IMG/VR virus record: IMGVR_UViG_2711768014_000008
Origin: a virus
Taxonomy: Duplodnaviria; Heunggongvirae; Uroviricota; Caudoviricetes
DNA length: 4,627 bases
Direction: 5' to 3' (one strand)
The notes beneath the pieces are model-generated. The model worked only from the letters and a program-made list of their open reading frames with translations. It was not told the DNA's origin and made no database searches. The translations under genes and the position numbers were made by a program. This document shows, one piece after another, positions 1-3,889 of this stretch. The number at the start of each line of letters is the position of its first letter. The first letter of the stretch is position 1.

Positions 1-160
1 GCTTTGAACTCTTTAGAGTAACGTTGGGTTTTTCTGCTCATTATTAGCTCCTTCTGATGCCATTCTATTTCAGGAAGGAGTGTCCGTTAAACTCAGGCTA
101 CCTCAGGTTATTCGCTTCTGGGCATGGGCGGATCAACAAATGATAGACGGTAATGCAGAT

Positions 161-181
161 TGTAACGCTCGCGGCGTTACA
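161..181. repeat. Perfect inverted repeat TGTAACGC-N5-GCGTTACA, candidate initiator-binding site (ori iteron)
   Basis: Read directly: tgtaacgc (161-168), tcgcg, gcgttaca (174-181). The same 7-8-mer recurs at 371-389 and 406-412. Confidence 0.5.
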
Positions 182-370
182 AAAAGTGCAATAGATCGCA
201 TCACTTTTATGTCTGGTTTTGCTGATGCGTTAATTCAGGTTGGATGGCTGGTCGAAAATGACGGAGGGCTTTCTCTACCTAACTTTGAACGTCATAACGG
301 AAAAAGCTCTAAAAAAAACGGGCGGTTACAAACGAGCGAGTAACAAAAATACGCGAACTGAAACGAAAAG

Positions 371-389
371 GTAACGCTGCCAGCGTTAC
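371..389. repeat. 19-bp perfect palindrome GTAACGCTG-C-CAGCGTTAC, second copy of the GCGTTAC motif
   Basis: Read directly: gtaacgctg (371-379), c (380), cagcgttac (381-389); a further copy gcgttac lies at 406-412. Lies in an A-rich tract (296-410) inside the linker-coding part of the initiator gene. Confidence 0.5.
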
Positions 390-414
390 ACAAACGGATC
401 AAAAAGCGTTACCA

Positions 415-434
415 GAGGAAGAGGAAGAGGAAGA
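415..434 (+). repeat. Tandem hexamer (GAGGAA)x3 plus GA, encoding an EEEEEE acidic linker
   Basis: Read directly: gaggaa at 415-420, 421-426, 427-432, then ga. Confidence 0.9.
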
Positions 435-788
435 TCTAAATACTGATCTCCCCCTCGCCAAAAACGAGCGTCTAAAAAATTCGAGCCGGAGGCTATTGAG
501 CTGCCCGATTGGTTGCCGGAAACACTCTGGCATGAGTGGGTCCGGTTCAGACAGGCATTGCGAAAACCGATTCGAACGGAGCAGGGCGCTAACGGGGCGA
601 TACGGGAACTGGAAAAATTCCGTCAGCAGGGTTTTACACCTGAGCAGGTGATTCGACACAGCATCGCCAATGAATACCAGGGCCTGTTCGCGCCGAAAGG
701 TGTTCGGCCTGAGACGTTGCTCCGACAGGTTAACACCGTCTCGTTGCCGGACAGTGCGATCCCGCCAGGCTTCAGGGGGTAACGGACC

Positions 789-1219
789 ATGAAAAATATT
801 GCGACAGGCGGCGTTCTGGAACGCATCCGCCGACTGACCCCGCCACATGTAACCGCCCCATTCAGAACGGTAGCGGAGTGGCGCGAGTGGCAACTTGCTG
901 AAGGCCAGAAACGTAGCGAGGAGATCAACCGCCTGAATCGCCAGTTGCGGGTGGAAAAAATTCTGAATCGCTCAGGCATCCAGCCGTTGCACCGTAAATG
1001 CTCGTTTGCGAATTACCAGGTGCAGAACGACGGCCAGCGATACGCGTTAAGCCAGGCGAAATCCATCGCCGATGAACTGATGACCGGGTGTACAAATTTT
1101 GCGTTCAGCGGAAAACCTGGTACCGGGAAGAATCACTTAGCGGCAGCTATCGGGAATCGCCTGCTGAAAGACGGTCAGACAGTGATTGTGGTTACCGTGG
1201 CTGATGTTATGAGCGCCCT
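789..1219 (+). CDS. DnaC-like helicase loader (phage replication protein, AAA+ family); 3' portion lost in the N run
   Basis: ATG 789 lies 6 nt after the upstream TAA (translational coupling). The 143 readable codons include the P-loop FSGKPGTGKNHLAAAIGNRLL...VIVVTVADVMSA, which matches the E. coli DnaC Walker A region (GKPGTGKNHLAAAI, with the atypical Asn) as I recall it; the N-terminal part is diverged, so this is a phage paralog rather than chromosomal dnaC. Homologs are about 245 aa, so the real stop should fall inside 1220-1607. The track extension to 1727 is an artefact of reading through N. Confidence 0.85.
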
Positions 1220-2607: not shown

Positions 2608-3294
2608 ATGACCCCAATAAACATATTTATGACAGTTGCTGATTTCAAACGGCCCAAATTGGAGCTCCCAAACGGGGCAAACAAACTACTACTGCACTCT
2701 TGCTGTGCTCCATGTTCCGGTGAGGTGATGGAGGCGCTTCAGGCCTCGGGAATCGACTACACCATCTTTTTCTACAACCCGAACATTCATCCTCAGAAAG
2801 AGTATTTAATTCGTAAGGATGAGAATATTCGCTTTGCTGAACAACACGGCGTGCCGTTTATTGATGCTGATTACGACACAGACAACTGGTTTGAACGAGC
2901 CAAAGGAATGGAATGGGAGCCCGAACGAGGGATCCGTTGCACCATGTGTTTTGACATGCGTTTTGAGCGGACAGCGCTGTACGCCGCTGAAAATGGTTTC
3001 AGTGTGATCAGCAGTTCACTGGGCATTTCACGCTGGAAAAATATGCAGCAGGTTAACGACTGTGGGCGGCGAGCCGTCGCGCATTATCCGGGCATGGTGT
3101 ACTGGGATTATAACTGGCGCAAGCAGGGCGGCTCGTCCCGTATGATTGAAATCAGCAAGCGCGAAAAATTCTATCAGCAGGAATATTGTGGCTGTGTGTA
3201 TTCTCTGCGCGATACCAATCTACACCGCAAATCTCAGGGACGCCCTCTTATCAAAATTGGTCAACTCCACTACGGTAAAGAAGAGAAGGAGTGA
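2608..3294 (+). CDS. queH: QueH/DUF208-like protein (putative epoxyqueuosine reductase-type Fe-S enzyme)
   Basis: 228-aa ORF, stop TGA 3292-3294. Contains [11 protein letters not shown] (CCAPC encoded at 2701-2715), [14 protein letters not shown] and EYCGC, the cysteine and NPN pattern I associate with the DUF208/QueH family. No Shine-Dalgarno before ATG 2608 or the in-frame ATG 2629, so the start is uncertain. Confidence 0.8.
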
Positions 3295-3443
3295 TTTTAT
3301 GGGGCACCTTTCTGATTGATTTCATATTGGCGAGGTAAGTAGAATGACTGCGGGTGCTTGAGGCTATCTGCTTCAGGCATGAACACCAAAAGGCAGATAG
3401 AGAAAAGCCCCAGTTAACATTACGCGTCCGGCAAGACGCTTAA

Positions 3444-3693
3444 NNNNNNNNNNNNNNNNNNNNNNNNNNNNNNNNNNNNNNNNNNNNNNNNNNNNNNNNN
3501 NNNNNNNNNNNNNNNNNNNNNNNNNNNNNNNNNNNNNNNNNNNNNNNNNNNNNNNNNNNNNNNNNNNNNNNNNNNNNNNNNNNNNNNNNNNNNNNNNNNN
3601 NNNNNNNNNNNNNNNNNNNNNNNNNNNNNNNNNNNNNNNNNNNNNNNNNNNNNNNNNNNNNNNNNNNNNNNNNNNNNNNNNNNNNNNNNNNNN
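3444..3693. other. Run of 250 N (assembly gap or masked sequence)
   Basis: Read directly. Confidence 1.
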
Positions 3694-3808: not shown

Positions 3809-3889
3809 CGACTCACTTAAGTAGCGCGCAGGGAGAAGAGGGATGGACCCCGAACAGGGGAGAGCTATTTATCTGGAAGGATTCTGAAG

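Follow-up and report, generated by a model that had tools for sequence, protein, structure and literature searches.

Copies of the heptamer GCGTTAC, read on either strand, are crowded into the early part of a putative replication initiator gene on a 4,627-nt stretch of Caudoviricetes DNA (IMG/VR record IMGVR_UViG_2711768014_000008; this whole stretch is called the window below). A first-pass annotation, made from the letters of the window, had taken them for a phage origin. We ask here whether the repeats are maintained as DNA, whether a replication origin is the best account of them, and what is left of that origin in this prophage.

Genomic setting

What the window contains is the part of a Rac-like lambdoid prophage devoted to replication. 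A ydaU-family initiator comes first, followed in order by ydaV (encoding a DnaC/IstB-like ATPase), a gene of the DUF977 type, an ORF with a zinc ribbon, queH and a gene of the DUF1367 type. The ydaV gene, annotated in relatives as the ydaV ATP-binding protein, follows the initiator and runs into an N-masked block. Two such blocks are present, at 1220-1607 and 3424-3693, the second being where relatives have hokD and other small features. The queH gene (epoxyqueuosine reductase; 2608-3294) is carried on the prophage. At the left end, positions 1-112 are 99% identical to the ‘IS3-like element IS600 family transposase’ found in >3000 E. coli genomes.

Arrangement of the repeats in the window

A search of the window located exact GCGTTAC/GTAACGC at 162-168 (-), 174-180 (+), 371-377 (-), 383-389 (+) and 406-412 (+). 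Approximately 0.30 copies are expected in all 4,627 nt, against five found within 250 bp, and the total of six copies in the window was reached in 0/200 dinucleotide-preserving shuffles; the clustering was thus rightly described as non-random. The sixth copy, GTAACGC at 2411-2417, is isolated inside the zinc-ribbon ORF (2047-2460), has no partner copies and is probably due to chance.

The first four copies form two pairs, palindromes A and B (Table 1), which lie 209 bp apart. They had been called perfect palindromes, and this holds for their arms (8 and 7 nt, respectively); the spacers, of 5 nt each, are non-symmetric, hence the pairs are inverted repeats in the strict sense. Two weaker copies had also been proposed. 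The one at 18-23 lies inside the IS600 end and is unrelated, whereas the one near 325 is a real, degenerate copy (325-331). The second degenerate copy, GAGTAAC at 339-345, is matched in the alignment by an exact GCGTTAC (gene nt 335) in three homologous loci (L047, L053 and L056). The last exact copy, 406-412, stands in a different codon phase from the others, as had been stated.

When placed on an AlphaFold model of the intact protein, palindrome A is coded in a loop of the N-terminal domain that is variable in length and of low confidence (residues 49-60; low pLDDT). Palindrome B, the single half-site and the polypurine tract that follows it are all coded within the predicted disordered linker (residues 121-160). 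The lambda-like placement in the linker-coding part that the first-pass annotation had suggested is therefore correct for cluster B and the polypurine tract, but not for cluster A, which belongs to the N-terminal domain.

Table 1. Features of the window discussed in the text, with their coordinates and strands (a point marks a feature given without strand).
Feature	Positions	Strand	Remarks
IS600 (IS3-family) element end	1..108	-	transposase start near 41; context, outside the origin
ydaU-family initiator remnant (PHROG 2509), pseudogene	105..782	+	from alignment with intact genes
Palindrome A, TGTAACGC-TCGCG-GCGTTACA	161..181	.	8-nt perfect arms; encodes peptide GNADCNARGVTK
Degenerate copies GGTTACA (325-331) and GAGTAAC (339-345)	325..345	.	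read from the sequence
Palindrome B, GTAACGC-TGCCA-GCGTTAC	371..389	.	7-nt perfect arms; linker-coding part
Single half-site GCGTTAC	406..412	+	23 nt past the previous copy; other codon phase; abuts the polypurine tract
Polypurine tract AGAGGAAGAGGAAGAGGAAGA, candidate DNA-unwinding element	414..434	+	purine run after the last repeat copy
Least stable 30-bp duplex of window 1-1200	419..448	.	contains GATC at 433 and 445
ydaV, DnaC/IstB-like ATPase, putative helicase loader	789..1219	+	Pfam IstB_IS21 and Bac_DnaA matches

The initiator gene of the window

The gene was compared with two intact 262-codon references, L001:3898-4686 (E. coli FDAARGOS_944) and L002:1228-2016 (Rac, strain 442/2). In the alignment, homology to intact ydaU-family genes begins at about position 105 of the window, the first ~103 nt of the initiator gene (34 codons) having been replaced by the IS600 end. 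The A-run at 311-318 carries an insertion of +2 (A8 versus A6 in the intact genes), and a 10-bp deletion after 448, between direct repeats TCCCCCTAAA, again shifts the frame. Owing to the IS600 junction and these frameshifting indels, ORFs 80-343 and 513-782 are fragments of the gene in different frames. As a consequence of the truncation, the insertion and the deletion, an intact cognate initiator gene in cis is absent from the window, and the alignment identifies the gene as a pseudogene here. The earlier placement of the repeats within a replication initiator gene is borne out by the match to PHROG 2509, with the amendment that in the window this gene is broken. Likewise, the two palindromes do encode similar peptides, as had been pointed out (CNARGVTK and GNAASVTQ), but the +2 insertion has put these into different frames.

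Since the initiator gene is truncated and frameshifted, and no cognate initiator is made in cis, any origin in the window is a relic, and no function can be claimed for this copy while its initiator is a pseudogene. The repeats themselves are identical in the alignment to those of the intact reference genes; those that survive could act only with an initiator of the same class supplied in trans. A further palindrome, U, which lies upstream of the gene in intact relatives, was lost from the window to IS600.

Conservation of the repeats among homologous loci

Homologous loci were drawn from records of phages, from viral contigs and from genomes limited to one for each species, giving a sample of 113 distinct genes with 42-100% protein identity in the N-domain. 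These derive from Enterobacterales, Pseudomonas, Burkholderiales, Planctomycetota, Verrucomicrobiota and others. In nearly all 113 homologues, the top strand-symmetric 7-mer of the first 600 nt was GCGTTAC or the overlapping CGTTACC, and the heptamers were clustered at gene nt ~149-197 and ~335-415. The alignment of homologous replication regions, proposed in the first-pass annotation as a check, thus gave a positive answer, with the heptamer or a concerted variant of it occupying the same two clusters. The GTAACGC class accounts for 99/108 full-length genes, with a median of 5 exact copies, and in 97 of the 99 both clusters are occupied.

The exact heptamer is strongly confined to the front of the gene, with a density of 9.0 per kb in the first 520 nt; the remainder of the gene has 0.09 per kb, the downstream DNA 0.07 and the upstream DNA 0.44. 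Most of the upstream copies (17/24) lie at <=120 nt from the start codon. An exact 19-bp palindrome is present in 128/171 loci, and it stands at one or another of the three positions U, A and B in all of these but L145, where the cluster lies deeper inside a longer gene. In enteric members, palindrome U is situated 14-44 nt before the start codon, in non-coding DNA, where it touches the ribosome-binding site. In L001, palindrome U reads TGTAACGC-TGCGA-GCGTTACA (3866-3884).

The spacing of the copies is regular. Neighbouring copies are separated by 11-12 bp (180 cases), 22-24 bp (63), 33-35 bp (19) or 45 bp (22), that is, by whole helical turns in multiples of ~11.4 bp. Both orientations and two codon phases are represented across the homologue set; 51% of copies belong to a palindrome, and the other 49% neighbour one another as direct repeats in convergent arrays, for example <<> or <>>. 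At the larger scale, the U-to-A distances (182, 192-193 and 202-203 bp) differ by steps of ~10 bp and are not multiples of 3, and from A to B most distances are 207-209 or 219-221 bp. These distances, which come from few independent lineages, hint at a helical phasing between the clusters.

Selection on the DNA and concerted change

Codon usage was examined by a column-based test on the protein alignment of 49 representatives with <80% identity, used instead of codon counts within pre-selected exact motif copies, which are circular. The peptide G-N-A-x-S-V-T is conserved in the N-domain in this alignment, and within the motif the choice of codon is close to invariant: Gly is GGT in 45/48 cases (gene-wide frequency 0.25), Asn is AAC in 38/39 (0.66), Ser is AGC in 30/30 (0.28) and Val is GTT in 39/44 (0.36). 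In the flanks, by contrast, Asp is GAC in 14/26 and Thr is ACC in 13/37, both at background. Synonymous sites are thus nearly fixed in the motif while the flanks drift, which upholds the earlier view that the repetition exists at the level of DNA and is not only that of a peptide.

In some lineages, the heptamer has been exchanged for another. GTCACGC replaces GTAACGC in L162, L125 and L165, GTGACGC is found in L170, GTTGCGC in L123 (8 copies) and GTAGACG in L166, and in the epsilon15-like phages SPN1S and BUCT711 the repeat is GTCCGC. The variant is present in both clusters in L123, L162, L165, L170, L166 and SPN1S/BUCT711. Moreover, the two central positions are complementary in 111/111 GTNNCGC-N4-6-GCGNNAC pairs. 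Within cluster A, this involves the covariation of a base that changes an amino acid with a synonymous base 12 nt away, such that AAC (Asn) goes with GTT (Val), CAC (His) with GTG (Val; 3/3), GAC (Asp) with GTC (Val) and TGC (Cys) with GCA (Ala). These comparisons show the repeats to be non-random, selected as DNA and subject to concerted change. What is unexpected in these alignments is the conservation of one heptamer across phyla, together with the codon covariation.

The polypurine tract

A run of purines of at least 12 nt (median 23 nt) is found in 45/49 representatives, and in ~35/49 it lies directly 3' of the last repeat copy. There the sequence reads (C)CAGAGAAGAGAAG... or, in enterics, CCAGAGGAAGAGGAAG.... 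The repeat unit is the pentanucleotide (GAGAA)n in most relatives, or the hexanucleotide (GAGGAA)n, and it is conserved across phyla at about gene nt 400. The same DNA is translated in two frames in different lineages, giving PEKRREEK versus REEKRRE, which argues that the tract is conserved as DNA. In the window, the nearest-neighbour free energy of the 419-448 duplex is -34.7 kcal/mol, as compared with a mean of -41.8 (sd 3.0) over window 1-1200. The A+T content of the tract is only 50-60%, which is below that of lambda. GATC (Dam) sites at 397, 433 and 445 lie on either side of the last repeat copy together with the polypurine tract, and the GATCAAAA-GCGTTACC arrangement is seen again in other enterobacterial members.

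The A-rich stretch that the first-pass annotation had regarded as the setting of the repeats was dropped as part of the element; it is not conserved in GC-rich relatives, and the conserved neighbour of the repeats is the polypurine tract. A second candidate lay further along, a C-run element of the form CCCCCC-TWA-CCCCCC (peptide PPLNPP), often followed by GGGG(G), which marks the start of the C-terminal module (window 441-456; ~4630-4660 in L010, the K-12 Rac locus). The 10-bp deletion of the window lies in it. The C-run element occurs in 11/49 representatives and in K-12 YdaU, across different classes of N-domain; on account of this limited occurrence it was assigned to one C-terminal module and rejected as a part of the origin. 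It may be a junction of module exchange.

The initiator protein

The intact protein is labelled ‘hypothetical protein’ in public databases, and matches PHROG 2509 ‘replication initiation protein’ with an E-value of 1e-89, and through its C-terminal half also the O-like PHROG 678. Searches of an intact homologue against Pfam (E<=0.01) and NCBIfam assigned no family, with only a weak DnaT match over the last 19 residues, and a profile of the N-domain gave nothing meaningful among PDB sequences. The two halves of the protein are found in other combinations. The N-domain (about residues 1-137) is reused with other C-termini in TL-2011b, ZX5 and Xanthomonas phages, and the C-domain is reused in the O-like proteins of Gifsy-2 and mEpX1 and shows 85% identity to K-12 Rac YdaU over 119 residues (144-262). 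The AlphaFold model (pLDDT 67.8) places helices at 16-25, 29-48, 61-68 and 73-80 and a hairpin at 84-91 in the N-domain, followed by a disordered linker and a helical C-domain, with low confidence in the loop 49-60. On the basis of this model, the N-domain is predicted to be winged-helix-like.

Comparison with known origins

In the accepted structure of ori-lambda, a set of iterons halfway along gene O has a purine-rich A/T tract after it (PMC7466680). The lambda sequence has four dyad-symmetric iterons of 18 bp in mid gene O, with ACAAAAGAAAAAAGAAAAGA after iteron 4. The intact loci resemble lambda and the Stx phages in having repeated dyad-symmetric sites of ~19 bp within the initiator gene and a purine-rich tract, the candidate for unwinding, directly after them. 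They would also share a two-domain initiator, the C-terminal part of which is inferred to engage a helicase-loading partner encoded by the next gene. The differences from lambda are several. The ydaU-family N-domain is unrelated by sequence, with no Phage_rep_O homology in Pfam at E<=0.01, and the repeat is GTNNCGC, compared with TCCCTC-N6-GAGGGA in lambda, so that the locus does not belong to the lambda O family. The sites form three clusters, which include the region coding for the DNA-binding domain and a site before the start codon, unlike the tight array of 4-6 of the lambda type; the tract that may unwind is a G+A repeat with a unit of five or six nucleotides; and the partner is DnaC-like and not lambda P. 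The analogy with the lambda origin drawn in the first-pass annotation nevertheless gains support from the repeats in the linker-coding part followed by the polypurine low-stability tract.

The Rac prophage is reported to have an active origin, oriJ (PMC3945230). The present module is like that of K-12 Rac in its ydaT-ydaU-ydaV order, its C-domain and the presence of repeats in the linker-coding part. It is unlike it in that K-12 YdaU has a DUF1376 N-domain and TGTTCAAACA repeats. The two modules accordingly fall apart as classes, with unrelated N-domains, an alignment limited to residues 144-262 and different repeats, and from its N-domain and repeats K-12 YdaU would have a different origin specificity. 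In K-12 Rac ydaU, TGTTCAAACA occurs three times within 66 bp of linker-coding sequence (L010 4512-4577), twice direct and once inverted; these repeats may be the iterons of oriJ.

This comparison indicates that the repeat sequence goes with the type of N-domain, as K-12 Rac YdaU combines the same C-domain with an unrelated N-domain and a different repeat. Such tracking is what would be expected of sites bound by the initiator. The repeats lie inside or beside the N-domain coding region, however, and mere linkage would be enough to hold the two together, so that co-inheritance does not fix the identity of the binder; what carries the argument is that every class has an over-represented repeat of its own at an analogous place.

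The iterons of plasmids such as pPS10 (RepA), R6K (pi) and F (RepE) are direct repeats of 17-22 bp outside the rep gene, adjoining DnaA boxes and an A/T-rich region. The loci studied here share with these plasmids an initiator that is predicted to be winged-helix-like, sites spaced by helical turns and, immediately before the initiator gene, an inverted repeat through which autorepression could act. They differ in having short, convergent half-sites inside the gene, and searches of Pfam and PDB sequences detected no homology to the Rep proteins of iteron plasmids.

Alternative explanations of the repeats

The repeats could be operators, through which the initiator or another phage regulator represses or blocks the transcription or translation of ydaU-ydaV, replication starting elsewhere. 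Rep proteins of iteron plasmids act on inverted repeats in their own promoters, and in intact relatives an exact palindrome abuts the ribosome-binding site 14-34 nt upstream of the start codon; palindromic repeats also dominate over direct ones. A sigma-70 promoter scan around the intact gene found nothing. Repression leaves unexplained both the two clusters deep within the coding region and the junction of the last copy with the conserved polypurine low-stability tract in the linker, and the motif is constant while neighbouring regulator genes differ between loci. We regard a purely regulatory function as unlikely on these grounds. The two roles are compatible, and palindrome U may be an autoregulatory site while B serves as the origin. 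It does count against an origin that the three clusters lie ~200 bp apart, unlike the single tight array of lambda, that cluster U, beside the ribosome-binding site, could serve autoregulation and not initiation, and that the polypurine tract is poorer in A+T than that of lambda.

That the palindromes act as hairpins, in RNA or single-stranded DNA, for mRNA stability or processing or as an antisense terminator, with complementary changes that keep the stem, is very improbable. Their folding energies lie between -10 and -12 kcal/mol (z between -3.3 and -3.8), palindrome B with the T-run that follows scores as terminator-like on the minus strand, and the central NN positions are always complementary. 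Independent stems need not match one another, yet those of U, A and B have one and the same sequence and change jointly in the variant lineages. Furthermore, roughly one copy in two is an unpaired direct repeat, spaced by helical turns, none of the 111 pairs is a variant of the G-U type, and there was no match in Rfam. Still harder to credit is the notion that the DNA itself has no role, the repetition being that of a peptide (xNA...SVT) or a product of chance or composition. The similar peptides encoded by 161-181 and 371-389, and the conservation of G-N-A-x-S-V-T in the N-domain, would agree with a peptide repeat. A constraint on the protein would not, however, fix synonymous positions within the motif and leave them free beside it, nor make a synonymous Val codon covary with an Asn, His or Asp codon 12 nt away; two orientations and two phases yield different peptides, and one copy lies outside the coding region. 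As for chance, none of the 200 shuffles reached the observed count.

Origin reading and its implications

We conclude from the sequence comparisons that the GTAACGC/GCGTTAC copies are probably the origin iterons of a Rac-like lambdoid prophage, situated inside its own ydaU-family initiator gene and preserved in the window as a relic. That the initiator binds these repeats, and that replication starts at them, is what we infer for the intact members. The half-sites would be bound by the N-terminal winged-helix-like domain, as convergent pairs (<< >>) about one helical turn apart. They would be offered in three clusters ~190-210 bp apart, with U before the start codon, A in the N-domain loop and B in the linker. 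Binding at cluster B may then stress the adjoining polypurine low-stability tract and lead to its unwinding, and the C-domain, common to K-12 Rac YdaU and related to O-like proteins, could bring in the DnaC-like loader YdaV together with host DnaB.

An origin inside its initiator gene is a well-known kind of element, whereas this initiator family and its repeat are undescribed in the literature searched, where no description of an origin, or of binding or replication data, was found for a ydaU-family initiator with GTAACGC repeats. A bolder reading, which we put forward tentatively and consider rather doubtful, is that the ydaU-like family represents an unrecognised, phylum-spanning type of phage origin, in which three phased palindrome clusters are bridged by the initiator into a looped complex, with (GAGAA)n as the unwinding element and a coupling of protein to site. 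Because one binding site would be written into a surface loop of the initiator, the protein sequence would be coupled to its own DNA site, and a change of origin specificity would force a different residue at position 51 (Asn, His, Asp or Cys) as well as synonymous changes at other places.

If the origin reading is correct, it locates the origin, and defines the binding specificity, of a prophage replication module that is very common yet unannotated and ranges over Rac-like prophages of E. coli and Shigella, epsilon15-like and TL-2011b-like phages and many Pseudomonas prophages. It would also allow origins of the family to be predicted by a simple rule, from arrays of GTNNCGC with a polypurine tract behind them, and would account for the repeat cluster of the window as the remains of an inactivated prophage origin. 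The coding sequence would be a clean example of constraint at the DNA level, in that synonymous codons are held fixed, a pentanucleotide repeat is translated in two frames and a binding site decides which amino acid is used.

In the SPN1S locus (L009), GTCCGC/GCGGAC arrays lie within the homologous gene at 1555-1618 and 1834-1874, and L007 is likewise arranged. Arrays of this type have four convergent copies at a spacing of 11-13 bp and end at CAGAGAAGAGAAG; by their sequence, they are a candidate for the origin of the epsilon15-like phage group.
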